From NCBI GenBank assembly GCA_018066015.1, contig JAGHSE010000299.1:1-44407 (forward strand): a stretch of 44,407 nucleotides of DNA, given 5' to 3'. Both the position numbers and the translations under genes were made by a program. Shown in pieces: positions 2,313-34,685 of this stretch; within the stretch, counting starts at the first letter, position 1; the number at the start of each line of letters is the position of its first letter. The notes under the pieces were generated by a model that saw only the letters and a program-made list of their open reading frames with translations, made no database searches and was not told where the DNA came from. This DNA is from Candidatus Colivivens equi (lineage in GTDB: Bacteria > Bacteroidota > Bacteroidia > Bacteroidales > Bacteroidaceae).

Positions 2313-5246
2313 ATGAAAAAGCAATACCTTTTTGCAATTATTTGTGGACTTTTGTTCGCTAACGGCATTAAATCAGTAGCTGAAGAAAGTAGTAATGTCA
2401 TTATCAATGAGATTATGCCTTCTAATATTGATTTATTTGTGGATCCATCATGGAACTTTGGAAGTTTCATTGAACTCTATAACCCAACAGACAAACCGAT
2501 TTCATTGGCATATTATTGTTTGAGTGATGATCCTAGTGATACTCGTAAATGGCGCATGCCTGCGACTATTGGTTCTATTCCTGCTCATGGATTTAAAGCA
2601 ATTTGGTTTGATCACAATGACCAATATTGTCAGACTCAGTGTCAGTTTAAGCTCAATGTAGAAGAAGGTGGTAACATTTCATTGTATGACAATAATGGAC
2701 ATTTACTTGACTCACAAGATTACCCTGTAACTATACATCGTTGTTCTTATGCGCGCAAAACTGATGGAAGCGATGAATGGGGATGGACTAGCGAGGCAAC
2801 TCCTGAAAAAACGAACAATACATCCAAATTTGCAGATGAGCAACTTGCTAAACCTAAGGTCAACGAACCAGGACAGGTATTCAACTCATCACTAAAAATA
2901 GAAGTATCAATACCCGAAGGCGCCACACTACGTTATACCACTAATGGTACTACCCCTACCCTCACGAATGGTTATACATCTACAAATGGTCAATTCACTA
3001 TTACTCAAACTAAAGTATATCGTTTTCGCTTATTCCAGGATGGTAAGTTACCAAGCGACATAACAACCTGTTCTTACATATTAAAAGGTAGCAAGACTTT
3101 CAACGCGCCAATTATTTCAGTTGTTACTGACGATAAGAATATCAATGGCAAAGACTATGGTATCTTTGTAAAAGGAAATGGTCATGGACGTGCTGGAAGA
3201 GGACAAGGAGAACGATGCAACTGGAATATGGACTGGGATCGTCCTGTTTCGTTTGAGTATATACCAGATGGGGGCAAAGCGGTTTTATCACAAGAAGTTA
3301 ATATGAGCGCAGTAGGAGGATGGAGCCGTGCTAACACACCTCATTCATTCAAATTAAAAGCAAATAAAATTTATGGAGAAAAATTCATGAGCTATCCACT
3401 ATTTGAAGACAAGCCTTATAACAAAAATAAAACCCTTCAAATTCGAAATGGAGGTAATGACAATTATTGCCGTATAAAAGATGCTGCATTACAGATGATA
3501 GTTGCTCGCTCTGGAATCGACGTTGACTGGCAAGACTACAAACCTATTTTTGTTTATATTAATGGAACTCTCTACGAAGTTCTGAATATGCGTGAACCAA
3601 ACAACAAGCACTGGGCTTACGCAAATAAAGGCATTGATGACGATTATATGGATCAGTTTGAATATGACCCAGACTCTGGATATGTTCAGCAAGAAGGCAC
3701 AAAGGCTAAATTCAAGGAGTGGTATGACCTATCAAAGAATGCTTCCAACAATACTACATACGAAAAAATCAAACAAATTGTTGACATTGACGAATTCATA
3801 AATTACTTTGCCATCGAGATGTTTCTTGGAGGTAATGATTGGATTGGTAATAGTAATAATGTTAAAGGATACCGTTCTAATCAAGATGATATAAATAGTA
3901 AGTTCCGTTTTACTTTATTTGACCTTGATGCAGCATTCCAAATCACTACTGGAGATGGATGGTGGACTCAACCTCAAAATATGTTCACATATATAGAAAA
4001 TAACCAAACACACCAAAACCAATATCCTCTATACGAACCTGATGGTAGGCAAAAATCAGCAAAACAATACGAGATTGAGCTCATAACAATCTGGTTGAAT
4101 ATGTTGAATAATGCGTATTTCCGAAAACAATTTATTGATACATTCTGTCTTGTTAGTGGAAGTGTATTTGATCCTACATTTGCAAAAAATATAATTACTG
4201 AAGTTACAAAACATGCCAATGAGGTAATGAAACAGGGGAAAGGTGGTTCTGCTGATAACTCTGCGAATGAACTCAAGAATAAATTGACGGCTTCATATCA
4301 AAATACTATGATTGGATATCTTAAGAGCTATTCACGTATGAAGTTATCAAGTACAACAAAGTTCACAGCTAAATTCTCAACAGATACTGAAACTGCAAAA
4401 ATTTATCTTAATGGAATTCCAGTCCCTACAAATAAATTTAACGGAGCATTGTTTGCTCCTGCCAAACTACTAGCTGTTGCTCCAGCTGGATATAAGTTTG
4501 CTGGGTGGAAAGATGTAAGCAAATCTAAAATTATCAGTACAGAAGAAGAATATACATTGCCCACAAATAGCACAGTCAATATTATTGCCACATTCCAAAA
4601 ATTATCTGAAGAGGAATTGAAAGAGCAATTCATCACTCCTATTCGTATCAATGAGGTGAGTGCTGAAAATGATAGTTATATCAATGATTTAGGTAAGAAA
4701 GGTGCTTGGGTTGAACTCTATAATACAACAGACCAAGCCATTGATATTGCTGGGATGTATCTTTCTGATAACAAGAGTAAACCTCACAAATATCAATTTA
4801 TGAAAAACGAAAATATCAACACTATCATACGGCCTCATGGGTTCTTAATTGTTTGGTGTGATAAGAAAGATGCTATCAACCAAATCCATACATCGTTTAA
4901 ATTAAACAATGACGATGGAAGTATTTTGATGTTGACGGCAGAAGATGATAGTTGGACTGACATTTTTGAATATAATGAACAATACACCAATCAAACTTAT
5001 GGTCGCTACCCTGATGGTGCAAATCAAATGATGGTAATGGGTGTTTCTACAATTGGCAGAACCAATATTAAGAGCACATACGATGAGCCATTTATTACAG
5101 ATATCGAAAATATTTCCACTGGAGAAATTGCAGATATTAATAATGGCATATATGACCTTCAAGGAAGAAAAATATCAACCCGCATGAATCTGCCTGCTGG
5201 AATTTATATCCAAAATGGAAAGAAAGTTTTAATAATGACAAAATAA
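2313..5246 (+). CDS. CotH-kinase-family protein flanked by two lamin-tail domains (LTD), with a T9SS C-terminal sorting domain
   Basis: N- and C-terminal LTD signatures (INEIMPSN...FIELYNPTD; RINEVSAEND...WVELYNTTD). A CHB_HEX_C-like GATLRYTTNGTTPT motif. A central CotH-like core (LQIRNGGND...KDAALQ...MREPNNKHW...FTLFDLDAAF). C-terminal GIYDLQGRKIS...LPAGIYIQNGKKVLI resembles a type A T9SS CTD. N-terminal signal peptide. Confidence 0.8.
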   Translation: MKKQYLFAIICGLLFANGIKSVAEESSNVIINEIMPSNIDLFVDPSWNFGSFIELYNPTDKPISLAYYCLSDDPSDTRKWRMPATIGSIPAHGFKAIWFDHNDQYCQTQCQFKLNVEEGGNISLYDNNGHLLDSQDYPVTIHRCSYARKTDGSDEWGWTSEATPEKTNNTSKFADEQLAKPKVNEPGQVFNSSLKIEVSIPEGATLRYTTNGTTPTLTNGYTSTNGQFTITQTKVYRFRLFQDGKLPSDITTCSYILKGSKTFNAPIISVVTDDKNINGKDYGIFVKGNGHGRAGRGQGERCNWNMDWDRPVSFEYIPDGGKAVLSQEVNMSAVGGWSRANTPHSFKLKANKIYGEKFMSYPLFEDKPYNKNKTLQIRNGGNDNYCRIKDAALQMIVARSGIDVDWQDYKPIFVYINGTLYEVLNMREPNNKHWAYANKGIDDDYMDQFEYDPDSGYVQQEGTKAKFKEWYDLSKNASNNTTYEKIKQIVDIDEFINYFAIEMFLGGNDWIGNSNNVKGYRSNQDDINSKFRFTLFDLDAAFQITTGDGWWTQPQNMFTYIENNQTHQNQYPLYEPDGRQKSAKQYEIELITIWLNMLNNAYFRKQFIDTFCLVSGSVFDPTFAKNIITEVTKHANEVMKQGKGGSADNSANELKNKLTASYQNTMIGYLKSYSRMKLSSTTKFTAKFSTDTETAKIYLNGIPVPTNKFNGALFAPAKLLAVAPAGYKFAGWKDVSKSKIISTEEEYTLPTNSTVNIIATFQKLSEEELKEQFITPIRINEVSAENDSYINDLGKKGAWVELYNTTDQAIDIAGMYLSDNKSKPHKYQFMKNENINTIIRPHGFLIVWCDKKDAINQIHTSFKLNNDDGSILMLTAEDDSWTDIFEYNEQYTNQTYGRYPDGANQMMVMGVSTIGRTNIKSTYDEPFITDIENISTGEIADINNGIYDLQGRKISTRMNLPAGIYIQNGKKVLIMTK

Positions 5247-8200
5247 TGAACAAATTTAACCTATTTACATTCTGCTGCGCATTATGGTTATGTGCAACAT
5301 TACAAACTTTAGCCAAGGATGGTGACAAGGAAAAAATGATTATCAACGAAATCATGCCTGCCAATCTTGATATGTTTATGGATCCATCATGGAATTATGG
5401 TGGTTTCATTGAGTTGTATAACACTACTGATGTTTCAGTATCAATCAAGTTGTATTATCTCAGTGATGATGCTAACAATTTAAAAAAATGGAGAATTCCT
5501 AGCTCTATGGCCAATATTCCATCTCATGGATTCAAAACTATATGGTTTGACCACAATGATGAGTATTGCAGAACTCAATGCTCATTCAAGCTAAATGTAG
5601 AAGAAGGTGGAACAATATATCTATCTGATACTAATGGAAACTTAGTCGCAAAACAAGATTATCCAATAGCTATACGTCGTTGTTCATATGCAAGAAAACA
5701 AGATGGAGGTGATGAATGGGGGTGGACTGGTAATGCTACACCAGACAAAACCAATTCTACCTCTAAATTTGCTGAAGAACAATTATCTTTACCTGTAGTA
5801 AATAAACCTGGGCAAGTTTTTACAGGAACATTGCAAGTGACAGTCAACATACCACAAGGTGCCACATTGAGATATACGACCAATGGCTCAACTCCTACGT
5901 TGGAAAACGGAAGTACTTCTACTACAGGCATATTTACTGTAACTAAATCAACCCCATATCGCTTTCGCCTTTTCAAAGACGGATATCTGCCAAGTGATGT
6001 AAAGACTTGTTCATATATATATAAGGACAAAAATTTCAATGCTCCAATAATATCTATTGTGTCAGATGACAACAATATTAATGGAGCAGAATATGGAATT
6101 TTCAATCAAGGCAAAGGTAATGGTCGTGCAGGTCGAGGACAAAGTGCAAGATGTAATTGGAATATGGATTGGGATCGTCCTGTTTCATTTGAGTATATTC
6201 CCGATAGTAAAGAAGTTGCTTTTGCTCAAGAAGTCAACATGGCTGCAGTTGGCGGTTGGAGCCGCGCATGGACTCCGCACTCTTTCAAACTGAAAGCTAA
6301 TAAAGTGTACGGCATAAAGTATATGCCATATGCTTTTTTTGAAGATAAACCTTACAACAAAAACAAAACTCTACAAATTCGTAATGGAGGAAACGATTGT
6401 TATACTGGATGCCGTATTAAAGATGCTGCCTTGCAGTCAATAATCGCACGTTCTGGAATTGACGTTGACTGGCAAGACTATAAACCTGTCTTTGTATATA
6501 TTAATGGCAAGCTATACAATGTACTTAATATGCGCGAACCAAATAATAAAGATTGGGTATATGCAAATAGGGGAATAAGCGATGAAGATCTAGATCAATT
6601 TGAATATGACCCAGACTCTGGATATGTACAAAAAGAGGGTACAAAAGAAAAGTTCCTTGAGTGGTATAATCTTACAAAACAACCTAACACACCTGAAAAC
6701 TACGAAAAAATCAAGCAATTGGTTGACATTGACGAGTTTATTAACTACTTTGCATTGGAAATGTATCTTTGTAGTGATGACTGGCTTGCTAACAGCAACA
6801 ACATAAAGGGATATTGCCCTAGACTTGAAGGTGGTAAATTCCGTTTCACTTTGTTTGACCTTGATGCTTCATTCAACATCACTGGAAATATGTTTAATGT
6901 TGTACAAAATACTCAATACAAAAAACTTGCAAATTTATATACCCCTAGTGGGACTATTACAGAAAATAAGACCGTTGAATTAGAATTGGCTACGATTTGG
7001 CTAAATATGCTTAATTATCAAGAGTTTCGCAAACAATTTATTGATGCTTTTTGTCTTGTAGTTGGCAGTGTTTTTGACCCTGTTAATTCTGCATCTATCA
7101 TTAAGGAAATTGCAACAAGAGCCGCCTCTGTAATGTCCGTTGCAGGTCATGACTCTCCTTGGAATACAGCTAATGAAGTCATTAACATGCTTTCTGCTGA
7201 TAGGCAAAATCAACAAATCAACAACTTAAAGAATTATACTAAGATGCAAATGAATGGAGTAAAATCAATTCAGGCAACTCTTGTTAGTAATTTGAATAGC
7301 AGTAAGATTCTCCTTAATAATCAAGCCATTCCATTCAATAAATTCAGTGGCACACTATTTCTACCTGCTACTATAACCGCAGAAGCACCTGCTGGATATA
7401 AATTCAAAGGATGGCAAAAATATAGCTCTACGGGGCTTTATCCTTTATTTGACAACGACGATTCATGGTCTTATTATGACAAAGGTAGTCTTGATGGCAA
7501 AAATTGGAAAGCAACATCCTACTCTACATCAGGATGGAGTACTGGAAATGCCCCACTTGGATATATTAATGGCGACACATGGCCTGATATTCACATAAAG
7601 ACAAAAACTACTGAAAAACATCCTACATACTATTTTCGCAAGACATTCAACTTGGATGTAGTTCCTACTGCCGATGATCAATTTGAGCTGTCATTCATGG
7701 CTGATGATGGTTGTGTCGTGTACATTAATGGTAAAGAAGTTGGCAGATGGAATATGCCAAGCGGAACTATTACATACAGCACATTTGCGACAACTTATTG
7801 TGACCAATATTCATTTCCACAGGTAATGACTATACCTGCATCATATTTCACTAGTGGGAATAACGTCATCGCTGTAGAAGTCCACAATAATAACGACACG
7901 TCATCTGATGCTGTATGGTTTGCAACACTCTCTACCACTGCAAGAAAAGTGTCTGATGAGGAACTTATATCTACTGATTCACAAATCAAACTGACTGATA
8001 ACGCTCAATTAATAGCTATTTTTGAGAAAGAAAATGACGAAGAAATATTTGCTCTTAATCACGTACCAGTCCGCATCAACGAAGTTAGTGCAGACAACGA
8101 TGTGTTTATCAACGACTTATATAAGAAAGCCCCATGGGTAGAATTGTATAATACAACAGACAAAGCTATTGACATTGCAGGAATGTCATTATCAGATAAT

Positions 8201-8806
8201 CTTAATAAACCACGTAAATACACGTTTAAGTCAGGAAGCATTTCTACTGTCATTGAGCCTCATGGTTTCTTGGTAGTTTGGTGCGACAAGAAGAATGCAG
8301 AGAGTCAACTACATACATCATTTGAAATTGAAAATGATAATGATTGCTATCTTACCCTTACCGCTGAAAATAGCGCATGGGCTGACACACTACAATATAA
8401 CGAACACCTTTATTGTATGTCATATGGACGCTATCCTGATGGTAGCAATAAAATTATGGCTATGAATCATCCAACTATAGGTGGTAGCAACATCATAACT
8501 TCCTACGACACTATTCATACCGAAACACGTCCACAGCCCACTGATATTGAAGTAATTAATACTTATGCCAGCAATAGCGAACTCAGTATTAAATATTCAC
8601 ACGGATATATTCTTGCAAAAAGTGAACAATGTCGTACAATCGAGCTCAATATCTCTACTATCTCTGGTCAGACAATTCGTACGACGACATTAAACATGAA
8701 TAATGGCATTAATTCTTACCAAGTACATTTGCCAGCAGGTACATATATTGCAAATATAATTGACAACTACGGTAATCAGTGTGCAACAAAATTTATTATT
8801 CCATAA
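5246..8806 (+). CDS. CotH-kinase-family protein, larger paralog of the upstream gene: LTD-CotH-beta-sandwich insert-LTD-T9SS CTD
   Basis: Collinear with 2313-5246 over most of its length with many identical peptide blocks. It has an extra roughly 170-aa insert (TYYFRKTFNLD...FMADDGCVVYINGKEVGRWNMP...NNVIAVEVHNNND), which looks like a galactose-binding-like/GH2-N-type beta-sandwich. C-terminal LPAGTYIANIID...KFIIP is T9SS-CTD-like. Its ATG overlaps the upstream TAA (TAATG). Confidence 0.8.
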   Translation: MNKFNLFTFCCALWLCATLQTLAKDGDKEKMIINEIMPANLDMFMDPSWNYGGFIELYNTTDVSVSIKLYYLSDDANNLKKWRIPSSMANIPSHGFKTIWFDHNDEYCRTQCSFKLNVEEGGTIYLSDTNGNLVAKQDYPIAIRRCSYARKQDGGDEWGWTGNATPDKTNSTSKFAEEQLSLPVVNKPGQVFTGTLQVTVNIPQGATLRYTTNGSTPTLENGSTSTTGIFTVTKSTPYRFRLFKDGYLPSDVKTCSYIYKDKNFNAPIISIVSDDNNINGAEYGIFNQGKGNGRAGRGQSARCNWNMDWDRPVSFEYIPDSKEVAFAQEVNMAAVGGWSRAWTPHSFKLKANKVYGIKYMPYAFFEDKPYNKNKTLQIRNGGNDCYTGCRIKDAALQSIIARSGIDVDWQDYKPVFVYINGKLYNVLNMREPNNKDWVYANRGISDEDLDQFEYDPDSGYVQKEGTKEKFLEWYNLTKQPNTPENYEKIKQLVDIDEFINYFALEMYLCSDDWLANSNNIKGYCPRLEGGKFRFTLFDLDASFNITGNMFNVVQNTQYKKLANLYTPSGTITENKTVELELATIWLNMLNYQEFRKQFIDAFCLVVGSVFDPVNSASIIKEIATRAASVMSVAGHDSPWNTANEVINMLSADRQNQQINNLKNYTKMQMNGVKSIQATLVSNLNSSKILLNNQAIPFNKFSGTLFLPATITAEAPAGYKFKGWQKYSSTGLYPLFDNDDSWSYYDKGSLDGKNWKATSYSTSGWSTGNAPLGYINGDTWPDIHIKTKTTEKHPTYYFRKTFNLDVVPTADDQFELSFMADDGCVVYINGKEVGRWNMPSGTITYSTFATTYCDQYSFPQVMTIPASYFTSGNNVIAVEVHNNNDTSSDAVWFATLSTTARKVSDEELISTDSQIKLTDNAQLIAIFEKENDEEIFALNHVPVRINEVSADNDVFINDLYKKAPWVELYNTTDKAIDIAGMSLSDNLNKPRKYTFKSGSISTVIEPHGFLVVWCDKKNAESQLHTSFEIENDNDCYLTLTAENSAWADTLQYNEHLYCMSYGRYPDGSNKIMAMNHPTIGGSNIITSYDTIHTETRPQPTDIEVINTYASNSELSIKYSHGYILAKSEQCRTIELNISTISGQTIRTTTLNMNNGINSYQVHLPAGTYIANIIDNYGNQCATKFIIP

Positions 8807-24219: not shown

Positions 24220-24333
24220 GTGATATTACTTGTCAATACGAGTAATATGAGTTATACGCTCTTAAATTTGCTTAAAACGCAAATAAAGATATAGAAAACC
24301 ATAAGAATATGTGATTATTTCAGAGAAAAGCTG

Positions 24334-24369: not shown

Positions 24370-24579
24370 ATGGCACAGGACATCAATCGGCTGAAGGTTG
24401 TTTTAGCCGAACAAAAGAGAACGAATAAGTGGCTGGCTGAGCAGTTGGGAAAAGACCCAGCTTCGGTGAGCAAGTGGTGCACCAATGCTTCACAACCCAG
24501 CATAGAGACTTTGGTAGAAATCGCCAGAAGCCTCAATGTGGATGTGAAGGATTTGCTTTGGTCAACAAAAGAGCGATAA
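24370..24579 (+). CDS. XRE-family helix-turn-helix transcriptional regulator
   Basis: RLKVVLAEQKRTNKWLAEQLGKDPASVSKWCTNASQPSIETLVEIARSLNVDVKDLL is a canonical HTH_3 layout. Confidence 0.9.
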   Translation: MAQDINRLKVVLAEQKRTNKWLAEQLGKDPASVSKWCTNASQPSIETLVEIARSLNVDVKDLLWSTKER

Positions 24580-24594
24580 ATAAACAACAGAATC

Positions 24595-26127
24595 ATGAGA
24601 CTACCAATCAACATAGAAGAACTTCTTAGCGGACGAGCTGTAGAAGGTGACCGCATAGAGTATAAGACAGGCTGGAACCCTGATGCTATATACCGCACCA
24701 TTTGCGCATTCGCCAATGATTTCGACGAAACTGGCGGTGGCTATATCGTGGTGGGAGTTCAAGAAGAGAATGGCCATGCAATAAGACCCGTTACAGGCAT
24801 TGACCCTAACCTGATAGAACCTATCGAGAAGGATATGGTGGGTTATAACAACCTGATGCGTCCGTACTATCAGCCCCGACTGTATATTGAAGAAGCAGAC
24901 GGAAAGACGATTCTTGTCATCAAGGTTTCTCCAGGTGAACGCAGGCCATACAAGGTGCCTGACCAAATAACGGCGAAACAGAAGACATTCAACTACTACA
25001 TCCGCTACAATAGTAGCAGTATCGTTCCGAGAGACGAATACGAGCGTGAATTGATAAACCTTGCAAATCGTATGCCCTTTGATGACCGTGGAAACGACGA
25101 CATCAAACTGACGGATATATCGCCATTGCTCCTACATGACTATCTTGTTAAGGTAAAGAGTAGTTTGGCTGACATCTCACTGACTGACCACATGGAGGAT
25201 GTGCTGGAGCAGATGGATCTATTGGAGGCTGTGCCGGAAGGATGGCGCATTAAGAATGTGGCAGCGATGATGTTCTCGGAACGCCCAGACCGCTTTTTCC
25301 ATCAAGCTCAGATTGAAATAGTTCTTTTCCCTGAAGGTAGAGAGAAGAATCCCAATAACCTGATTGAGGTAGAACCCATCAGGGGCAGTGTGCCACAGAT
25401 GATAGAGAAGACGTTAAGCTATCTGAACACCAACATCATCAAGAAACAGATTATTAAGCCCAAGGACAGGGCGCAATCCATATCATTCTTCAACTATCCC
25501 TATCAGGCTCTGGAAGAAGCTGTTGTCAATAGCTTGTATCATAGAGACTGGACGATTCGGGAACCTGTTGAAATCACCATAGAACCTGAACGCATATCCA
25601 TTCTCAGTTTCTCTGGCCCCAACCATACCATACCGATGGAAGCTGTCCATAAAGGTATATCGTTACGTTCACGTCGCTATCGTAACCGCAGGTTGGGAGA
25701 ATTCCTGAAAGAATTAGATCTAACAGAAGGCCGAGCTACTGGCATTCCTACTATTCAGGATGAACTAAAAGACAATGGATCCCCACAGGCAACCATTGAG
25801 ACGGATGAAGAACGTACTTACTTTCTGATTGACATTCCGTGCCACCCAGATTTCGTAAAAGAACAGTTCGTTCTGAACAAGGATGTCGGAAAAGATGTCG
25901 TAAGAGAATTGTCTGAGCGTCAGAAGATTATATTAGATTTCATTGCAGAGAATCCTGCTCTTACCGCCAAGGAAATGTCGGAAAAGATGTCGGAAAAGAT
26001 GTCGGAAAAGGACGGTGTCAATGAAAGGACAATCGAAAGGGATCTGGCAAAACTAAAGAAACTAGGTGTTCTCTCTCGTGAAGGCGGTCGTAAGGAAGGC
26101 AAATGGGTAATCATTAACAAAGAATAA
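24595..26127 (+). CDS. AlbA_2 (Schlafen-like) DNA/RNA-binding domain + HATPase_c_4-like domain + C-terminal wHTH protein
   Basis: The N-terminus EELLSGRAVEGDRIEYKTGWNPDAIYRTICAFANDFDETGGGYIVVGV is the AlbA_2 signature. The middle has EEAVVNSLYHRDW. The C-terminus has ERTIERDLAKLKKLGVLSREGGRKEGKWV (wHTH). It contains an MSEK x3 tandem repeat. Confidence 0.8.
   Translation: MRLPINIEELLSGRAVEGDRIEYKTGWNPDAIYRTICAFANDFDETGGGYIVVGVQEENGHAIRPVTGIDPNLIEPIEKDMVGYNNLMRPYYQPRLYIEEADGKTILVIKVSPGERRPYKVPDQITAKQKTFNYYIRYNSSSIVPRDEYERELINLANRMPFDDRGNDDIKLTDISPLLLHDYLVKVKSSLADISLTDHMEDVLEQMDLLEAVPEGWRIKNVAAMMFSERPDRFFHQAQIEIVLFPEGREKNPNNLIEVEPIRGSVPQMIEKTLSYLNTNIIKKQIIKPKDRAQSISFFNYPYQALEEAVVNSLYHRDWTIREPVEITIEPERISILSFSGPNHTIPMEAVHKGISLRSRRYRNRRLGEFLKELDLTEGRATGIPTIQDELKDNGSPQATIETDEERTYFLIDIPCHPDFVKEQFVLNKDVGKDVVRELSERQKIILDFIAENPALTAKEMSEKMSEKMSEKDGVNERTIERDLAKLKKLGVLSREGGRKEGKWVIINKE
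25975..26010 (+). repeat. Perfect 3 x 12-nt in-frame tandem repeat (ATGTCGGAAAAG = MSEK)
   Basis: Units at 25975-25986, 25987-25998 and 25999-26010. A further copy plus a degenerate copy lie at 25883-25906 and are read in a different frame (DVGKDVV). Confidence 0.9.
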
Positions 26128-26128
26128 T

Positions 26129-26926
26129 ATGCCAAAGTGGTTTCATATAACGATTTCCGTATTGCTTGCGTTATTGGCGATCGGATTTTCCATTCTGATA
26201 TGCGGTAAGCATCACTGGGGATATATCCCATGTGCCGCCATCGCAATTGTTCTGTTTGCTTGCTTCTATGGATTCCTTCGTTTATGCTTTTGGGCGGGAG
26301 CAAAGATAGCTTTTGTTTACGCAGATGCCTTTCAAAAGCATGTCCGTCCTCGTATAGAGGTGGAGGCGATACAGAAATACATCGCTGAGCATCCGGTTGA
26401 AAAGCCGGTTCAACAATCTCCCATTGAAGAAATGTCAGAGCATAACCAAATCCTCAATCAAGAGGAACGCCTACGCAGATTCATGGAGACTTGCAAAAGA
26501 GAACGTGAACAGTTCGTTGCTATAAAAGAAAAGGCAGATGAAGAAAAGTTAGCAAAGGTTCAGGCGTATGTGCGACAAACCTTGATGCCTTTCGATTTCA
26601 CGGACGAAGAACTGTTCCAAGTGAGCGAGTGTGTTGTTTCATTGGTCGTTCATGGTGTTGTTGTACCCACCCTTCCCATCAAGATTGAGAAGACTGGCAA
26701 GAAGGAACAACTCACTCAGCATGACTTGGCAAATCTCAGTTGGAACATTGCCAACCAGTACAACATACCAAACAAACTGGCGGCTCAGTTCGCACAGTAC
26801 ACCTTCCCTGCCTGGTTCTGGAACACCACAACAGATACCCTGGCAAAGAAACTGAAGAACAGGTCCAATGATCTCCACATCATGATAGATGAGAGAATAA
26901 TAGATTCTTCTTGTGATACTAAATAA
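26129..26926 (+). CDS. Hypothetical membrane protein (two N-terminal TM helices, coiled-coil-like middle)
   Basis: The start is 1 nt after the upstream stop. No recognisable domain. Confidence 0.55.
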   Translation: MPKWFHITISVLLALLAIGFSILICGKHHWGYIPCAAIAIVLFACFYGFLRLCFWAGAKIAFVYADAFQKHVRPRIEVEAIQKYIAEHPVEKPVQQSPIEEMSEHNQILNQEERLRRFMETCKREREQFVAIKEKADEEKLAKVQAYVRQTLMPFDFTDEELFQVSECVVSLVVHGVVVPTLPIKIEKTGKKEQLTQHDLANLSWNIANQYNIPNKLAAQFAQYTFPAWFWNTTTDTLAKKLKNRSNDLHIMIDERIIDSSCDTK

Positions 26927-26961
26927 ATAGGAGTCGATCATTATACGTAATTTGAATAATA

Positions 26962-27687
26962 ATGAGCAAAATTGTTCTAATCGTCGATTACAATAATATA
27001 TTCATAGCAGACAATTGCACTGCAAAAGAGATAGAATTGACCTTGAAAGATGTCGTTGAACAAGCTCTTCAAGTCTCAGATACAGTTAATGAAATTCTCA
27101 TTAGAATTTACGAGGGGTGGTATCAAGATGAAAAACTAACAGATAGGGGCTCTTCTATAATGTCTAAGTTTGCACAGATAGAACCATTCCCTAATGTATA
27201 CAAAGGGAAATCTATTGTTGGTAATATTGACTTTGTTGAACAAATTTATGGAATTGATTTTCCATGGAGAAATACATATAGAGAAAAACCTGGACCAAGA
27301 CTTATCATAAAAAAAGATGTTCATCGTCCACATTGTCCTAACAATAAGGACAAATGTCCAGTTGAATTATTAGCTAAATTTACGAAGAAGAAAGAAAAAG
27401 TATGCCATGTGGATGGGTGCAATGTGAATAACATGAGTGTTTTCTCTCAATATGGACAGAAGATGGTCGATACTATGGCATGCGACATATTAACGTATGG
27501 CGAAGAAGAAGATACTGCGGCTATTTATGTTTTAACAGACGATGTCGATTTGTTTCCATCAATAGCCCTTTGTAGTAGGAAAAATCCTAATGTAAAATTA
27601 TATATTGGAACAAAAAATAATAAACATGTCCAAGAATGTGATGTGTTAAATAATAATTTCGGAATTACAACATTTTTATTAGTATGA
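26962..27687 (+). CDS. NYN-domain (LabA-like/PIN-like) predicted nuclease with a Cys/His-rich insert
   Basis: IVLIVDYNNIF (N-terminal Asp strand) and QKMVDTMACDILTYGEEEDTAAIYVLTDDVDLFPSIA match the NYN pattern QKGVD...D...vSgDsDf.P. The insert is HRPHCPNNKDKCP...CHVDGC. The stop overlaps the next ATG (ATGA). Confidence 0.7.
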   Translation: MSKIVLIVDYNNIFIADNCTAKEIELTLKDVVEQALQVSDTVNEILIRIYEGWYQDEKLTDRGSSIMSKFAQIEPFPNVYKGKSIVGNIDFVEQIYGIDFPWRNTYREKPGPRLIIKKDVHRPHCPNNKDKCPVELLAKFTKKKEKVCHVDGCNVNNMSVFSQYGQKMVDTMACDILTYGEEEDTAAIYVLTDDVDLFPSIALCSRKNPNVKLYIGTKNNKHVQECDVLNNNFGITTFLLV

Positions 27688-29985
27688 CACCAGAAGCATT
27701 TGAAAACATTAAACGTGATCTGGCTTCATTTGCCGATGACGAACATGAGATGGTCTGTGACGAACGTGGCAATGTTATTTTCGAACGCCATGGACAATTG
27801 CTAAGTATTCAATTACGAGAGGATGAAGACGGTCGAAAATATGTAAAGTATAACGGTGTGGAGATACCATACCGTCTTTTCCTAGCTAAAGAACTCTCTC
27901 ATCTGGATATATTGGCATCTAAAATACTTCAAAGAAAATATTCTGAGGAACAATGCTATGTGGATTCAAATGTTATGTTAATGAGCATTGACCAGCAAAA
28001 ACAAGGTAAGGCCATGTCTATACTATATGAGGAAAGCAATAATCCTGCATTAATTGGTACAAAAATCAGTTTTGTAACAGCAGATGCAGGACACGGCAAA
28101 TCTATGCTTTTAAGGCATTTTCAGTATTGTCAAGCACAGCATTATCTTGACAACTCTACTAACTTTTTGTTTTGGCACATTGATTTACACGGACGAGATT
28201 TAGTGCGCCTAAATGAAGCCATCATGTATGAACTAGGAGAATTGAGAATGTCTGGGTTGTACTTTTCTTCAATATTAACATTAATGCGCCACCATCTTAT
28301 TGTTCTTGGAATAGATGGTTTTGATGAGTTGGCAGCAGAGAAGGGTGGTGAAACAGCACTTAACTCTTTGTCAAATCTGGTATCACAGATGCGAGGTAAA
28401 GGTGTCCTTATCGCTGCATCAAGAAGAGCTTTTTTTAACTCACAAGATTATTTGCGAAGAACAGGGATTTTAAATCGTAATATTGGTGGGGGATGTCTTT
28501 TTAACGAAATTAAAATAAGCAATTGGCAAAAAGAACAATGTGTTGAATATCTTAACAAATACACGTTTGACACAAACGAATATGACAACTTGCTTATGGC
28601 TTTAAAGAGTGACAAGCATCCGCTTCTTGAACGTCCGTATTTATTTACGAAATTAGTTCACTATTCATTTGAAGACAATATAAATCCATCAGAATTCATC
28701 AACAAGAAAGGACATAATAATCTTGAAAACATCAACGATGTTATTGAGGCGTTTATCTATAGAGAAGTTGATAAATGGACACAACGAGACAAAGAAACGG
28801 GTAAACCATATCTTAGTTTTGAACAGCATATTCGTCTTTTATCTGAAGTTGCTGCTGACATGTGGAACCGACAAAAAAAACACAATCTCTGTAGAAAACC
28901 TTCAGCTGATATTAACAATACTCTTTGATGAATGGAAGACAGACCTCCAATTGCAACCTATTATTTTGCGAATGGTGGAATCGCATGCCATGCTTATTAA
29001 TGTTGAGAACAGGGATTCTTACAGAAAATTTGATCACGAAGAGTTTAAAAATTTTTTCTTAGCAAGAGCTTTAGAGGATATTATAAGACATTCTTTGAAC
29101 GACAATAACAATAGAGAATTATATAAGTTCTTATATGTTGCACAATTACCAGATACTGTGGCTCAATATATATCTACACGATTCATTCCAGAAGAAATCA
29201 TGCCTGTAATCAAGATTTTGAAGGATATCCGTAAAAAGGAGTGGAAACCAACATATATTCAAAGTAATATTGGTACTGTATTGCCTTTCTTGCTTAATGG
29301 TTTCTTTCCTACAGAAACTATAATAATTGATGGAAAAATTAGTTTTTCTAGTTTGGTTTTTGAAAATAAGAGGATAGAAAACGTATTATTTCGTGATTGC
29401 ACATTTGTTAATATCAGTTTTAACAAGACATATTTTAAAAATGTGCATTTTGATAATTGCACTTTTACAGGTATTGTAATCACGAGTGAAAGCAACAATT
29501 TCAAAGAATCAAGTATTCATGATAATTGTATTATTAATATGGTATCAGTCGCTCACCCCAAAGACGAGAACTTGGAAACTGAATACTCTCCTCATGCTAT
29601 ATTTAATATTTTACAAAATTTAGGTATTCAAATTGAATATGTTCAATCTAATAAGCCAGAAGAGAACTCTGTATGTACGACGGAGTTTTACAAGAATGTT
29701 AAAAGGCTTCTAAATCGGTATTCCAAAACGACATGCCTTCTTGAATCAAACATAAAGCAGTCACCATTATTTAATTTTAAAAATCCTGACATGATTATAA
29801 ACGATATTATACCATTGTTAGAAGAATATGATATCATTGAAATAAGAGAGAACAGAAAAACTCGTCAAGCAGGAACACGGGCATGGGCTTTAAAACAATA
29901 CGACATATCTGAGGTTTTCAAAGCAGAGGAAGAAAAAGGTTCTAAACTTTGGTATTTTTGGGAGAAAGTGAAACAACATGAATAA
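27684..29985 (+). pseudogene. NACHT-family STAND NTPase with C-terminal pentapeptide repeats, interrupted by a frameshift in an A8 tract (track ORFs 27684-28928 and 28723-29985)
   Basis: Walker A is FVTADAGHGKSML, Walker B is LIVLGIDGFDEL, and the sensor region is VLIAASRRAF. The NACHT wHTH motif RKFDHEEFKNFFLARAL lies in the second ORF. Phe occurs at every fifth residue in FRDCT FVNIS FNKTY FKNVH FDNCT FTGIV. Removing one A from 28873-28880 joins ...DMWNRQK to NTISVENLQL... in frame. Confidence 0.8.
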
Positions 29986-30816: not shown

Positions 30817-31116
30817 TCACTTATTGTTCAACAACATCATTCCTTTTATCGTCAGCAAATATCGTTGGCGTGGATGATGTGGGTTCTCTGGGTACTTCAT
30901 GCGCACAAATCCTTCATTAATGGCAGGTGTGAGTGAATAATCGAGGAAGTTAGGACGGTTCTTCAAACCTACGGCTTCCATCATACTCTTCACGTTCATT
31001 TCTTCTTTGCCGATTGCTAATACCAAGTGTCTTACATTATCTGATGAAGGCTGTATATCGTTTTGAACTTGTATGGGTGGTTGTATGGGTATCGTCCTAA
31101 TCTTCTTTATATTCAA
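30817..31116 (-). CDS. Small winged-helix DNA-binding protein, resembling the C-terminal wHTH of Fic / AlbA_2-ATPase proteins
   Basis: ...MMEAVGLKNRPNFLDYSLTPAINEGFVRMKYPENPHHPRQRYLLTIKG. Its start overlaps the Fic stop by 20 nt. Confidence 0.55.
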   Translation of the reverse strand: MNIKKIRTIPIQPPIQVQNDIQPSSDNVRHLVLAIGKEEMNVKSMMEAVGLKNRPNFLDYSLTPAINEGFVRMKYPENPHHPRQRYLLTIKGMMLLNNK

Positions 31117-31936
31117 TCAGCATATAGCGATTCTTCAGTTCATTATTCTCACCGAGCAACAGATTACGGAAGAACTTCACGAGGAAAGATTTGTCTGGTT
31201 GTATGCCTTTCTGTGGATTACGATAATTGGCGCGTACCAGGGCGTTACGGAAGTACCAGGAGTTGTCGGCAAAAAGTTCATTGTTTACCTTGAAACCGCA
31301 AGAACGCAGATACTTTATTATGAATACCGCTGTTGTTCGAGTATTACCTTCGCGGAACGGATGATTCTGCCAAAGCAAAGTCACAAAGTCCACAACATGC
31401 GAGATAATCTCATCTGATGTCAAGCCTTTGTAACTGAAATCACGCTCCGTCTGTATGTCATATTTCAATGCGGCATGAATGTCTGCAGCACGTCCATACA
31501 CAACCGTATCTCCTTGCAATACCCACTCCTTTTTACTGATGTCAAAAGGTCGGATTTCGCCAGCGTGCTTAAAGATGCCCTCAAACAGATGGCGATGGAT
31601 ATTCAGAAATTCTAAAGGAGTAAATGAGAATGACTGCTCATTCAGCAATTTCGTAATATTTGCAGCAACACGATCTGCCTCTTCCTTTTCTGCATCATCA
31701 GCATCGTGCGTTGTCTTGTTTACATAGTATGAGCGAAGTTGTTCTCTCACCTCATCAATGGTGATGTCACCCTCAATGTGCCTTACCGCTGTCTCTTTTA
31801 GATATTCGGACACACGAAGTCCATCTACGTCTTGAAGTCCTATCGCAGTACGCCAAGCCGAGATTCTCTCACGCTTATGTGGTTCTGCCACACGTTCGTA
31901 AGCTTCGAAGTCAATATATTTCTGCTTTTCGCTCAT
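31097..31936 (-). CDS. Fic/DOC-family protein with a variant active-site motif
   Basis: HPFREGNTRTTA, against canonical HPFx(D/E)GNGRxxR. The N-terminal helical region (AWRTAIGLQDVDGL...EGDITIDE) resembles VbhA-type antitoxin modules. Confidence 0.8.
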   Translation of the reverse strand: MSEKQKYIDFEAYERVAEPHKRERISAWRTAIGLQDVDGLRVSEYLKETAVRHIEGDITIDEVREQLRSYYVNKTTHDADDAEKEEADRVAANITKLLNEQSFSFTPLEFLNIHRHLFEGIFKHAGEIRPFDISKKEWVLQGDTVVYGRAADIHAALKYDIQTERDFSYKGLTSDEIISHVVDFVTLLWQNHPFREGNTRTTAVFIIKYLRSCGFKVNNELFADNSWYFRNALVRANYRNPQKGIQPDKSFLVKFFRNLLLGENNELKNRYMLIEYKED

Positions 31937-31955: not shown

Positions 31956-32504
31956 TTATAACGTTTTATCTGTTACTTTATTCTCATATACTGTAGGAAT
32001 CTCCTCTGCAGCTATCAGTGGCTCTTCCTCTGGTATCTCATAGTGCCTGATGCTATGGTCTTGCAGGAATATCTTGTTGAGCGTAAAGCCCAGCGATTCC
32101 AGCGTTTTCTCACGTACCTTCGTTTTCAACTCACATTCCCAGATGGTGATGGAGTGCCACCCCATCGCAGCCAGTTCATGCTGCACTTTCAAGTCCCGCT
32201 CCTGGTTCCTCTGTATCTTTGCCACCCAAAATTCACGATTCGTTTTCGGTATCTTGCAGCATTCAGAACTTTCAAGTGCTTGCATATCAACGTGATGGCC
32301 ATGCCAGAAGCAACCATTTACAAAGATGCAAGTGCGGTACTTACGAAGAACCAAATCAGGATGGCCAGGTAACCGCTTATGGTTAAGCCTGTATCTGAAT
32401 CCTCGTTTCCACAACCCACGACGCACAATCATTTCCGGTTTCGTGTCCTTCGACCGAATGGCAGCCATATTCTTATGGCGTTGCTGTGTGGTGAGTCTGT
32501 CCAT
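31956..32504 (-). CDS. vsr: Very-short-patch repair endonuclease
   Basis: RSKDTKPEMIVRRGLWKRGFRYRLN...PGHPDLVLRKYRTCIFVNGCFWHGH is the canonical Vsr core. Confidence 0.9.
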   Translation of the reverse strand: MDRLTTQQRHKNMAAIRSKDTKPEMIVRRGLWKRGFRYRLNHKRLPGHPDLVLRKYRTCIFVNGCFWHGHHVDMQALESSECCKIPKTNREFWVAKIQRNQERDLKVQHELAAMGWHSITIWECELKTKVREKTLESLGFTLNKIFLQDHSIRHYEIPEEEPLIAAEEIPTVYENKVTDKTL

Positions 32505-32505
32505 A

Positions 32506-32940
32506 TTATTTCAAGGTTTCAATCAGTTCATCTATTGAACAGCATACGCCACTGAACAACTTGTACATCAGTTCCGGCTCCAGACATTCAGGTATATAGG
32601 CGATAGTGGTACGTCCTTTGCCAGCAAAACAGCCAGCCTCAGTGTGAGCGCTCCTGCCGCAGGGCAATACCAATACACACGTATCGCAAGCCTCCATTGC
32701 CTTGATATCGTTCTTGAACTGCCACATAGCATAAGGATGCTGCAACATATCACGATACTTCTGTGGCGACCATTCCATATAGTCCTCGCTGACGCTACTC
32801 CACTTAAATCCAGGGTCACCCGATGGCGGATTACGGAAGTCATACACTTCGTGTCCGACCTCCCTCAACCTGGCCAGTACCTCAGAGTAATACCCATTGC
32901 GCCAACTGCTAGCTACATATATCTTTCTTTGAGTCATCAT
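32506..32940 (-). CDS. Nucleoside 2-deoxyribosyltransferase-like (N-glycosidase fold) protein
   Basis: KIYVASSW... and ACDTCVLVLPCGRSAHTEAGCFAGKGRTTIAY fit the Nuc_deoxyrib_tr pattern cD..v.l....S.G...E.G.a.g.GK. ATGA-coupled to the helicase gene. Confidence 0.5.
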   Translation of the reverse strand: MMTQRKIYVASSWRNGYYSEVLARLREVGHEVYDFRNPPSGDPGFKWSSVSEDYMEWSPQKYRDMLQHPYAMWQFKNDIKAMEACDTCVLVLPCGRSAHTEAGCFAGKGRTTIAYIPECLEPELMYKLFSGVCCSIDELIETLK

Positions 32941-34685
32941 TTTATTATTGTAGCTATAAGGATATTTGAGTTCACATCTCGTTTTTCCTTCACATTTTTC
33001 ACGAAAAGCTCAAATCCCCAGCACTCATTTTCTTCTGCATCTTTTGTTCTTTTAGTCTTTATTTGTCCAGCAATTTCAGCTTCTAGGAAGAAAGGATAAT
33101 CGTAAACATCAAATATCACCTTTTTATATTGTCTGACTACGAATGGACAATGACCATTATATTCGTCGCGATAGTTCCAATCGCAGTCAATATCTTTAAA
33201 TGCTTTTTGTACTATCCACCTGCCTCTTTTATTCATAAAGATCTTTTCAGCAAGGCTTCTGTCTGCAATTGCCCTATGACACTTCTTCTTAGTGCCGTTT
33301 TTATAACTTAGATAGGTTCTGTATGATATTCTAATTTTTAAGGGAGAACGTTCCACATCATTGGGCTCCAACTCTTCTGGCAGGTTTATATTACCTTTCC
33401 TGTCGAAACTTTTTAAATATAGTTCCACCTTTGGATCTGCATTAATCTTTTGGATAGGAATCTGGGATAGTAAGTGTATTCCATTCAGATTGGTACACCT
33501 GCTTAAGGCGACATATACTTGCCCATACGTAAATGCATCTGATGCTTCAATGGCCAGCTCGTCAAATGTAAGGCCTTGACTCTTGTGAATGCTGACAGCC
33601 CAAGCCAGTTTAATTGGGTATTGCTTAAACCAACCTTTAACTCGAGTCTTTATCTCCTTCGTTTTTTCATCGACATAATATTCATTCTGTTCCCATTTTG
33701 CTTCTTTTACGTCAACAAGCACCCCTTTGTCAGTACTAACTTTTATTATCTGATAGTTAATCTCTTCAACCCATCCTAAAGTTCCATTCTTATATTCGCC
33801 GAAATCATTATCATTTCTTTGAAACATTACTCTGGCTCCTCTTTTTAAAAAGAGTTCTTCAGGAACAGGAGTTTTTTCTCCATACCATCCTTTTTTCTCT
33901 CCTTTATAATAATAGCATTTTGTGCGTAATTTGTTAAACAGGAAGTTATCGTTCCAATCATCTGCTGTTTTATTATGAGTCATTAATGTTACGATATTCT
34001 CTTTTACCTTCGGCCTATAATTCGACTCTATGCGTTCATCTAGCAAATTAATATCATCTTTGGTCACCTTTCCTTTCCTTATATGGTTGAGCATTGATAT
34101 GAAGATTGGATCATCTTGTCTGTATATAACCTTTAGTTCTACCATCTTGTAACTCAACTTTTGTAGTGCTTTACAAGAAAAGAAATAAAGAGAATCGTTG
34201 TAATACTTACTCAGCTTCTCCTCCTCTTCTCTTTTAGCTACAGGACTGAGTTGGTACAGGTCGCCAAACATTACCAGTTGAATACCGCCAAATGGCTTCT
34301 TAGATTTCCTATAATAGCGCAGTACTTCATCAATAGCATCCAGCATGTCACATCTTACCATGCTTATTTCGTCGATAATCAGCAACTCTAATTTTTTAAC
34401 GACTGCTATGCCACCAGAATCTAATTGATATATATCCTTATTTATATGACCAGGCAGATACAAAAACGGCTTAAAGCCGAAAAAATGATGAATAGTGGAA
34501 GCCTTCACATTTTCAGCAGCTACCCCTGTCGGTGCAAGAACTGCAAGTGCTTTTTTACTTTGAAGTTCATCAACGATTTTTCTGAGCAGGGTGGATTTTC
34601 CAGTTCCTGCTTCACCTGTAATAAAAAGGTTTTCCCCCTTTTTTACAAGATTGAAAGCTCGCTTGTTATATCTGTCTATCTCCAT
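32937..34685 (-). CDS. Pif1/RecD-like SF1B helicase with a roughly 150-aa uncharacterised C-terminal extension
   Basis: FITGEAGTGKSTLL (Walker A), LLIIDEISMV (Walker B), HKSQGLTFD, YVALSRC. The tail from about residue 430 has no motif I recognise. Confidence 0.85.
   Translation of the reverse strand: MEIDRYNKRAFNLVKKGENLFITGEAGTGKSTLLRKIVDELQSKKALAVLAPTGVAAENVKASTIHHFFGFKPFLYLPGHINKDIYQLDSGGIAVVKKLELLIIDEISMVRCDMLDAIDEVLRYYRKSKKPFGGIQLVMFGDLYQLSPVAKREEEEKLSKYYNDSLYFFSCKALQKLSYKMVELKVIYRQDDPIFISMLNHIRKGKVTKDDINLLDERIESNYRPKVKENIVTLMTHNKTADDWNDNFLFNKLRTKCYYYKGEKKGWYGEKTPVPEELFLKRGARVMFQRNDNDFGEYKNGTLGWVEEINYQIIKVSTDKGVLVDVKEAKWEQNEYYVDEKTKEIKTRVKGWFKQYPIKLAWAVSIHKSQGLTFDELAIEASDAFTYGQVYVALSRCTNLNGIHLLSQIPIQKINADPKVELYLKSFDRKGNINLPEELEPNDVERSPLKIRISYRTYLSYKNGTKKKCHRAIADRSLAEKIFMNKRGRWIVQKAFKDIDCDWNYRDEYNGHCPFVVRQYKKVIFDVYDYPFFLEAEIAGQIKTKRTKDAEENECWGFELFVKNVKEKRDVNSNILIATIIK

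Follow-up and report, generated by a model that had tools for sequence, protein, structure and literature searches.

What do two overlapping genes, one for a small nuclease-like protein and the other for a large NTPase, do together, and why is this copy of them broken? The pair lies in a window of 44,407 nucleotides, the whole stretch analysed here, from Candidatus Colivivens equi (contig JAGHSE010000299.1 of assembly GCA_018066015.1). An initial annotation of the window had described the pair as a two-gene module in which a NACHT protein is coupled to an NYN nuclease encoded in trans. We consider it rather more probable than its opposite that the locus preserves, in decayed form, an NLR-like immune module of two genes, with an NYN nuclease triggered by its NACHT partner. 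The NYN and NACHT pair itself recurs in at least six bacterial phyla. The ATGA coupling of the annotated layout was located precisely, and the two genes are arranged as follows:

26962-27687, + strand: gene of the NYN-like (PIN-fold) nuclease, the predicted effector, an open reading frame (ORF) of 241 aa
27684-27687, + strand: ATGA overlap in the sequence, with the NACHT start codon over the NYN stop codon (TGA)
27684-29985, + strand: whole NACHT gene, in two frames meeting at an A8 run
27684-28928, + strand: 5' part of the NACHT gene, an ORF for a truncated product of 414 aa with the N-terminal domain and most of the NACHT module
28873-28880, + strand: A8 homopolymer, the frameshift site, which is A7 in intact relatives by DNA alignment
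28881-29985, + strand: 3' part of the NACHT gene in the +1 frame, with the rest of the helical and winged-helix region, the beta-helix and the C-terminal domain

How widely is this arrangement shared? A pattern-limited scan for the NACHT motifs in one genome per species (185,579 species genomes) returned 68 loci. Full-length relatives of the NACHT protein at 31-56% identity occur in Bacteroidota, Actinomycetota, Desulfobacterales and Acidobacteriota, and distant ones at 19-28% identity, which by eye have the same overall layout, occur in Alpha- and Gammaproteobacteria, Spirochaetia, Vicinamibacterales and Holophagales. At 75 of 80 loci, spanning Bacteroidota, Actinomycetota, Proteobacteria, Acidobacteriota, Spirochaetia and Desulfobacterales, the ORF immediately upstream of the NACHT gene and on the same strand matches an NYN profile; two of the five loci lacking a match have no upstream DNA. 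The nuclease is a separate gene at these 75 loci, not a fused effector of the kind expected of bNACHT and Avs proteins. The proposal that it is encoded separately is therefore borne out, and the concern that the pair might not be conserved elsewhere is answered by its presence in several phyla. Of 68 distinct loci, 45 have the NYN stop codon in an ATGA overlap, 5 in GTGA and 6 in TTGA. Among 1.84 billion representatives clustered at 50% identity, 927 belong to the NYN family at E <=1e-3 and 505 at E <=1e-10. No NYN-NACHT fusion is found among the top 150 of the 927; these 150 are all stand-alone proteins, 78-360 aa long. One 919-aa ORF (in locus L031) was considered as a fusion and ruled out, being without NYN signal.

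Several observations accompany this survey. Two gammaproteobacterial loci have two shorter + strand ORFs upstream of the NACHT gene with no recognisable NYN (L047, 4404-5593; L070, 4413-5602), and these may be further decayed NYN copies. Proteins of the cultured gut Bacteroidales Bacteroides ovatus, Parabacteroides distasonis and Phocaeicola vulgatus share 90% clusters with the family; a single exact NYN sequence turned up on at least 1000 contigs. Since it is present in cultured gut Bacteroidales, the pair may influence the dynamics between phages and their hosts in the human gut. The 90% cluster of a P. distasonis NACHT protein (L013:5998-8289), which also has a Phocaeicola member, includes a partial protein labelled Escherichia coli (NAA09930.1) from a contig of 3 kb; the E. 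coli entry is probably Bacteroidales DNA contaminating that assembly.

Is the small protein a nuclease? Two parts of its gene matter here:

27334-27420, + strand: Cys4 (plus His) insert CPNNKDKCP...CHVDGC, a predicted zinc ribbon inside the NYN fold
27469-27486, + strand: NYN catalytic motif QKMVD-TMAC-D (D170...D175), with a 3-bp in-frame deletion after 27474

Seventeen close homologues were found, and 9 of the 15 that were aligned match the NYN family PF01936 (best E 1.1e-5). One homologue (P0017) carries a precomputed PF01936 annotation, and UniRef names a Bacteroidales member of the family "NYN domain-containing protein". The family alignment holds the expected NYN motifs, namely D9 in (I/V)DYNN, QKMVD-x5-D and (T/S)DDxD. 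In 67 distinct partner sequences, drawn from every phylum sampled, D170, D195 and D197 occur without exception, D176 in 66 and D9 in 59. An AlphaFold2 (AF2) model of the protein has an alternating beta-alpha core at a mean predicted local distance difference test (pLDDT) of 82.7, and among the 50 fold matches listed the NYN domain of MARF1 has the highest target-normalised TM-score (0.59, probability 0.92). C125, C132, C148 and C153 are invariant within the alignment of the Bacteroidota/Actinomycetota subfamily; the Cys4 insert occurs in about half of all NYN partners, is missing from a shorter proteobacterial-type clade, and is modelled with low confidence (pLDDT 52-65). We predict from motifs and model that the small protein is an NYN/PIN-fold nuclease.

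The insert also lends itself to another interpretation, that the NYN-like protein is a nucleic-acid sensor or adaptor and that the output lies in the N- or C-terminal domain of the NACHT protein. A Cys4 zinc ribbon is typical of nucleic-acid binding, and neither end domain of the NACHT protein has an assigned function. Against this, the full catalytic Asp set is unchanged over very large distances, which argues for a working enzyme, and neither end domain matches an effector family in Pfam, NCBIfam or PADLOC. A sensor role is therefore improbable, and we return to the NYN protein as the predicted effector.

What is its partner? In the numbering of a protein restored to a single frame, the large gene encodes these parts:

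27684-28058, + strand: N-terminal alpha/beta domain, residues 1-125, from the AF2 model of homologue P0018
28089-28103, + strand: Walker A GHGKS, residues 136-140, with G136, H137, G138 and K139 invariant in 38 homologues
28314-28328, + strand: Walker B with the NACHT signature D-G-F-D-E, with D211, G212, F213, D214 and E215 invariant
29335-29484, + strand: ten consecutive pentapeptide units, residues 551-600, in a beta-helix that reaches to about 29583
29584-29982, + strand: C-terminal alpha/beta domain, residues 634-766, from the secondary structure of the model

Deleting one A from the A8 run yields a protein of 766 aa, and more than 100 homologues of 754-781 aa align to 98-100% of it; the repaired translation is colinear with the full-length homologues. 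Because the relatives with A7 are intact and homologues align end to end, this reconstruction is correct, and the length of roughly 766 aa proposed for it is that of the gene called in the two closest relatives (L010 and L009). All of the annotated NACHT motifs were recovered: GHGKS (136-140), DGFDEL (211-216), ASRR (245-248) and FDHEEFKNFF (449-458). The protein scores 35.4 bits against the Pfam NACHT model PF05729 (cut-off 26.7) over residues 130-291, and the 38 homologues in which both Walker motifs are unchanged are diverse. NACHT is the best-scoring Pfam family in nine of ten distant partners tested and comes second, behind AAA_22, in the tenth (L068). The Walker B sequence conforms to the signature D[GAS]hDE as defined by Kibby et al. 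(10.1101/2022.07.19.500537). The AF2 model of P0018, a full-length homologue at 87% identity, has a mean pLDDT of 83.3 and the nucleotide-binding, helical and winged-helix fold seen in NLR proteins; searched with Foldseek, its top matches in the PDB are NLRC4, NOD2 and NLRP3 (E 9e-14 to 1e-9). Sequence and model together make the assignment of the large protein as a NACHT NTPase firm.

Four parts can be distinguished in this protein: the N-domain (1-125), the NACHT module with its helical and winged-helix regions (about 126-540), the beta-helix (about 545-633) and the C-domain (634-766). Neither the N-terminal 125 residues nor the C-terminal domain match any effector family in the three collections named above. 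The C-terminal domain is conserved family-wide to nearly the same degree as the beta-helix (0.55), the distant proteobacterial-type proteins show by eye a similar region, and we regard the domain as a candidate ligand-binding or docking domain.

The initial annotation had placed a six-turn beta-helix with regular Phe residues in the sensor region and had likened it to a DNA mimic. The regularity is there: the central residues of the ten pentads are F, F, I, F, F, F, F, F, F and I, with six consecutive Phe, and residues 546-633 of the P0018 model form short beta-strands. The Pfam models Pentapeptide, Pentapeptide_4 and Pentapeptide_3 (PF00805, PF13599 and PF13576) all fall below cut-off, at 25.5 versus 38, 23.7 versus 27 and 13.3 versus 20.2 bits. 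The family profile matches the solved pentapeptide-repeat proteins 2w7z (E 8e-5) and 2xt2 (E ~1e-4). The window protein matches the NCBIfam model for HalA at E 1.5e-8, but only in part and with 34 bits against a cut-off of 250, and a partial match to the Qnr model reaches 15 bits against 240. From sequence and model, the pentapeptide repeat is real yet short, amounting to about 2.5-3.5 coils. Since the helix spans so few coils, the DNA-mimic idea lacks support and we rejected it; about ten pentads are too few, and the matches of Qnr and MfpA type are partial and weak.

Why is the window copy broken? Two lesions separate it from its closest relatives, L010, which is 99.5% identical over 3.3 kb, and L009, which is 98.3% identical; both have A7 and an intact 766-aa gene. 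The A8 run at 28873-28880 is the only A8 in the region of the pair and ends the first NACHT frame at 28928. A second lesion, overlooked in the initial annotation, lies in the NYN gene, where DNA alignment with the same two relatives shows ATGATG reduced to ATG after 27474. This changes QKMVDTMMACD to QKMVDTMACD, shortens the Asp-Asp spacer from five residues to four and leaves the protein one residue short of its close 242-aa homologues. The pattern [QE]K.[VIL]D-x5-D is kept in 70 of 75 NYN partner ORFs; four are off the pattern and one has an eight-residue spacer. Both lesions are slippage events.

Could the lesions be errors of sequencing? They are not assembly noise, because two independent short-read assemblies reproduce them: a Logan contig from run SRR18398357 (L081) is 100% identical to 27346-29476 and has both lesions, and another from run SRR18398425 (L082) is 100% identical to 26433-27796 and has the NYN deletion. 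The other long ORFs of the window are without obvious breaks, save for a possible split of a Fic gene, and one unbroken ORF holds another A8. On the strength of the two contigs and of this second A8, a sequencing artefact was ruled out. Runs of eight A are prone to slip in transcription or replication, and the change in the NACHT gene is a single-base length difference within a homopolymer, so that transcriptional slippage or phase variation might still supply some full-length NACHT protein. We give such a bypass the least credence of the alternatives and find it very improbable, since the relatives have A7, the run is apparently not conserved (P0018 reads QKST where the window reads QKNT), and the NYN gene is separately damaged in its most conserved motif; a restored NACHT frame would not rescue the system. 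For the same reason, shortening A8 to A7, put forward earlier as the repair, would not by itself restore the module. The window module is most likely non-functional in this strain, and it shows how such systems get lost, with two slippage mutations among strains that are 98.3-99.5% identical.

Why would both genes be hit? The main rival to activation by the NACHT protein is a logic of restraint or addiction, akin to toxin-antitoxin pairs, in which the NYN protein is toxic by default and is kept inactive by the NACHT protein until NACHT loss or phage-induced inactivation releases it. The NYN deletion in the window would then have been selected to compensate for the NACHT frameshift. Tight translational coupling and strict co-occurrence are what restraint would lead one to expect; lesions in both genes, despite intact copies in strains 98.3-99.5% identical, fit a forced co-inactivation, and a review describes guard-type logic as documented for the Hailong system. 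The gene order, however, and the large STAND protein with its sensor-like C-terminus look like activating NLRs and less like antitoxins, and two neutral slippage events after selection was lost account equally well for the double lesion. We judge restraint unlikely, though it is the alternative to which we give most weight, and continue with the NACHT-triggered nuclease.

Does the genomic setting speak for immunity? Among 122 neighbouring ORFs from 35 diverse loci there is no third conserved gene; the commonest family is phage integrase (5), followed by N6/N4 DNA methylase (4), resolvase (2) and BrxL, RhuM and a BsuBI/PstI endonuclease (1 each). At individual loci the pair lies beside GmrSD with HEPN and an AAA_15/21 ATPase, beside McrBC or HsdR, or next to a PLD-SNF2 helicase. 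The flanks of the pair differ between close relatives. In the window it sits just after dnaK, in an island with genes for a helix-turn-helix (HTH) protein, a Schlafen/AlbA_2-HATPase protein, a 265-aa protein, DUF6155, Fic/VbhA, Vsr and a PIF1-like helicase. A search of 72,556 plasmid and 50,697 phage records with the NACHT protein (tblastn) gave no match. The pattern of neighbours fits mobile cargo of defence islands.

Housekeeping or regulatory roles are known for bacterial NYN proteins, Rae1/YacP and LabA among them, and the pair could likewise act in regulation or RNA processing, as a LabA/YacP-like NYN RNase under an NTP switch whose presence in islands is incidental. This would suit the many ordinary metabolic genes among the neighbours and the C-terminal region, which is not hypervariable. 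Such a role is hard to square with the recovery of only 68 loci, scattered over unrelated phyla, by the pattern-limited scan of species genomes, with the varying flanks near which integrases, resolvases and restriction-modification genes recur, and with the ease with which the pair is lost or inactivated between strains 98.3-99.5% identical. With a patchy distribution and invariant catalytic residues, non-immune and NYN-sensor roles are both less likely than an immune one; we consider a non-immune role doubtful, a shade less so than a sensor role.

How might an intact copy of the immune module work? The NYN nuclease would be made in a fixed ratio with a NACHT NTPase of 725-775 aa, because the genes overlap at stop and start codons. 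The beta-helix and the C-terminal tail would sense an infection cue (an infection-derived ligand), the NACHT module would then exchange nucleotide and oligomerise, and the clustered N-terminal domains would bind or release the NYN partner. The NYN protein would cut RNA, or possibly single-stranded DNA, halting the infected cell. We infer the trigger, the physical contact between NYN and NACHT proteins, the substrate and the anti-phage role by analogy with the bNACHT, Avs and NLR paradigm. By that analogy the pair probably acts against phages. More tentatively, at somewhat less than even confidence, we propose an unnamed, phylum-spanning anti-phage system in which an NLR with a miniature beta-helix switches a free-standing NYN RNase through its N-domain.

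Several results weigh against this picture. The window NYN protein has zero sequence matches in Pfam, NCBIfam, PADLOC or the PDB. Of the "clear NYN motifs" and Cys/His insert reported initially, the motifs stand, as do four Cys residues invariant in their own subfamily. A PDB sequence search with the protein or its profile gave no meaningful match, and at E 0.07 the fold match to MARF1 has little statistical weight. Housekeeping genes are numerous among the neighbours of the pair. The sensor region is conserved (0.55) to about the same degree as the N-terminal domain and is not hypervariable, a weak showing for an arms-race receptor. Finally, the assignment to defence rests on analogy and context, since no PADLOC 2.0 model matches either protein.

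What would follow if the picture is right? Researchers study the NLR-like proteins of bacteria as models for the NLRs of animals and plants and as their ancestors; to our knowledge, nearly all of the bacterial ones tested carry the effector within the same polypeptide. The NYN-NACHT family would be a compact system, a simple two-protein model, for asking how oligomerised NACHT proteins recruit a partner in trans and activate it. Animals have antiviral RNases of NYN type, including KHNYN, N4BP1 and Regnase-1, and the pair would be a bacterial counterpart in which an NLR-type switch is paired with such an enzyme.

The rest of the window offers several observations of its own. Upstream of the NYN gene, at 24370-26926 on the + strand, lie head to tail an HTH gene (69 aa), a Schlafen/AlbA_2 gene with HATPase_c_4 (510 aa) and the gene of the 265-aa protein, which has no family match. 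This block is syntenic in close relatives only (L001 and L009, the latter with an inserted DUF3800 gene), and neither the Schlafen/AlbA_2 ATPase nor the 265-aa protein was retained as a candidate third gene of the system. From dnaK to the NYN gene, the Bacteroidota-type motif TAnnTTTG occurs on the + strand only at 24263 and 24334, and the five genes from HTH through NACHT may therefore be co-transcribed. Over the whole window (38% GC) the motif occurs 79 times against 51 expected, a count reached in none of 100 shuffles; motif count and GC content are in keeping with a chromosome of Bacteroidota (Bacteroidales). A scan for sigma-70 promoters and terminators gave results at chance level, with a sigma-70 model that is ill suited to Bacteroidota. 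On the - strand, the Fic/VbhA ORF (31097-31936, 279 aa) and a Fic-like_C ORF (30817-31116, 99 aa) overlap by 20 nt and could represent either another split gene of the island or a true two-ORF arrangement. A tight cluster at 31956-34685 (- strand), which may be another cargo module of the island, encodes a Vsr mismatch endonuclease (182 aa), a 144-aa protein without family match and a PIF1-like helicase (582 aa). At 2313-8806 (+ strand) two tandem paralogues (977 and 1186 aa) have CotH kinase-like, lamin-tail and chitobiase C-terminal domains and are adjoined by GH31 and GH127 glycosidases.

How does the pair compare with systems already described? A PADLOC 2.0 comparison, suggested in the initial annotation, recognised neither protein: no family matches at E up to 1, and these defence-annotation models thus miss the pair. 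PADLOC 2.0 presumably includes bNACHT01 and bNACHT09 models. Full-text literature searches, including RefSeq accessions of family members, found no named NYN+NACHT system, and public annotation ends at "NACHT domain-containing protein", "NYN domain-containing protein" or "hypothetical protein".

The closest large body of work is the bNACHT census of Kibby et al. (10.1101/2022.07.19.500537), with which the pair shares the NACHT module with D[GAS]hDE, a C-terminal repeat of pentapeptide type, a defence-like context and a presumed logic of sensing, oligomerising and activating. The pentapeptide sensor, initially thought uncommon, is a standard sensor class in that census, whose Table S1 has 49 occurrences of NACHT+Pentapeptide architecture strings; the entries listed fall in clade 9. 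By the layout given there, the clade 9 entries listed have N-termini of at least 200 aa of the NNH3/NNH4 or EAD10 type and longer pentapeptide arrays at about 780-1270, whereas in the NYN-NACHT family an alpha/beta N-domain of 125 aa is combined with about ten pentads and an additional C-domain of 130 aa. The census finds bNACHT genes rarely in operons, and those operons poorly conserved; in the NYN-NACHT family, unlike in bNACHT systems, the candidate effector always has its own gene, tightly coupled to that of the NACHT protein. The effectors that Kibby et al. name do not include NYN, and neither NYN nor PIN occurs in the supplementary tables of the census that were searched.

An effector in trans, also called uncommon at first, has precedents in CARD-NLR and LypABC (PMC13236601), which have separately encoded partners and effectors, with CARD-like domains, trypsin-like proteases and gasdermin or lytic outputs, and which form a distinct ATPase clade. 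The likeness lies in an NLR-like STAND ATPase with separately encoded operon partners, a precedent for a trans-acting output; the difference is that the partner in our pair is an NYN nuclease. Neither of the two proteins, and none of the recurrent neighbours, showed a CARD, a trypsin-like protease or a gasdermin.

Avs proteins combine in one polypeptide a fused effector (Mrr, Cap4, SIR2 or similar) and a TPR-like sensor. The pair resembles them in its STAND NTPase, C-terminal sensor and nuclease-type output, and by analogy an abortive-infection logic would be expected. Unlike in Avs, the best fold matches of the NACHT protein are the NACHT modules of eukaryotic NLRs, and no Avs model of PADLOC 2.0 matches it.

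On the nuclease side, the conserved Asp set and the Rossmann-like PIN fold are shared with LabA-like NYN proteins of PF01936, with the NYN domain of MARF1 and with HEC-09. The last is a single NYN-domain protein of defence loci with a helix-turn-helix-like N-terminus that gave no protection in tests (10.1101/2024.01.29.577857); because it is embedded there, NYN domains do occur inside defence loci. The pair differs from HEC-09 and other NYN RNases in that the window protein lies below Pfam reporting thresholds, about half of the family carries the Cys4 insert and the pairing with NACHT is obligate. With Qnr, MfpA, AlbG and HalA the NACHT protein shares the central-residue periodicity and the signature of a quadrilateral beta-helix; unlike them it has a short helix within a STAND protein, with nothing pointing to gyrase mimicry or oligo-dA binding. 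Set beside all of these, the new element, for which the literature searched holds neither a name nor a test, is a bacterial NLR-like system whose NYN nuclease is strictly encoded in trans and coupled by translation.

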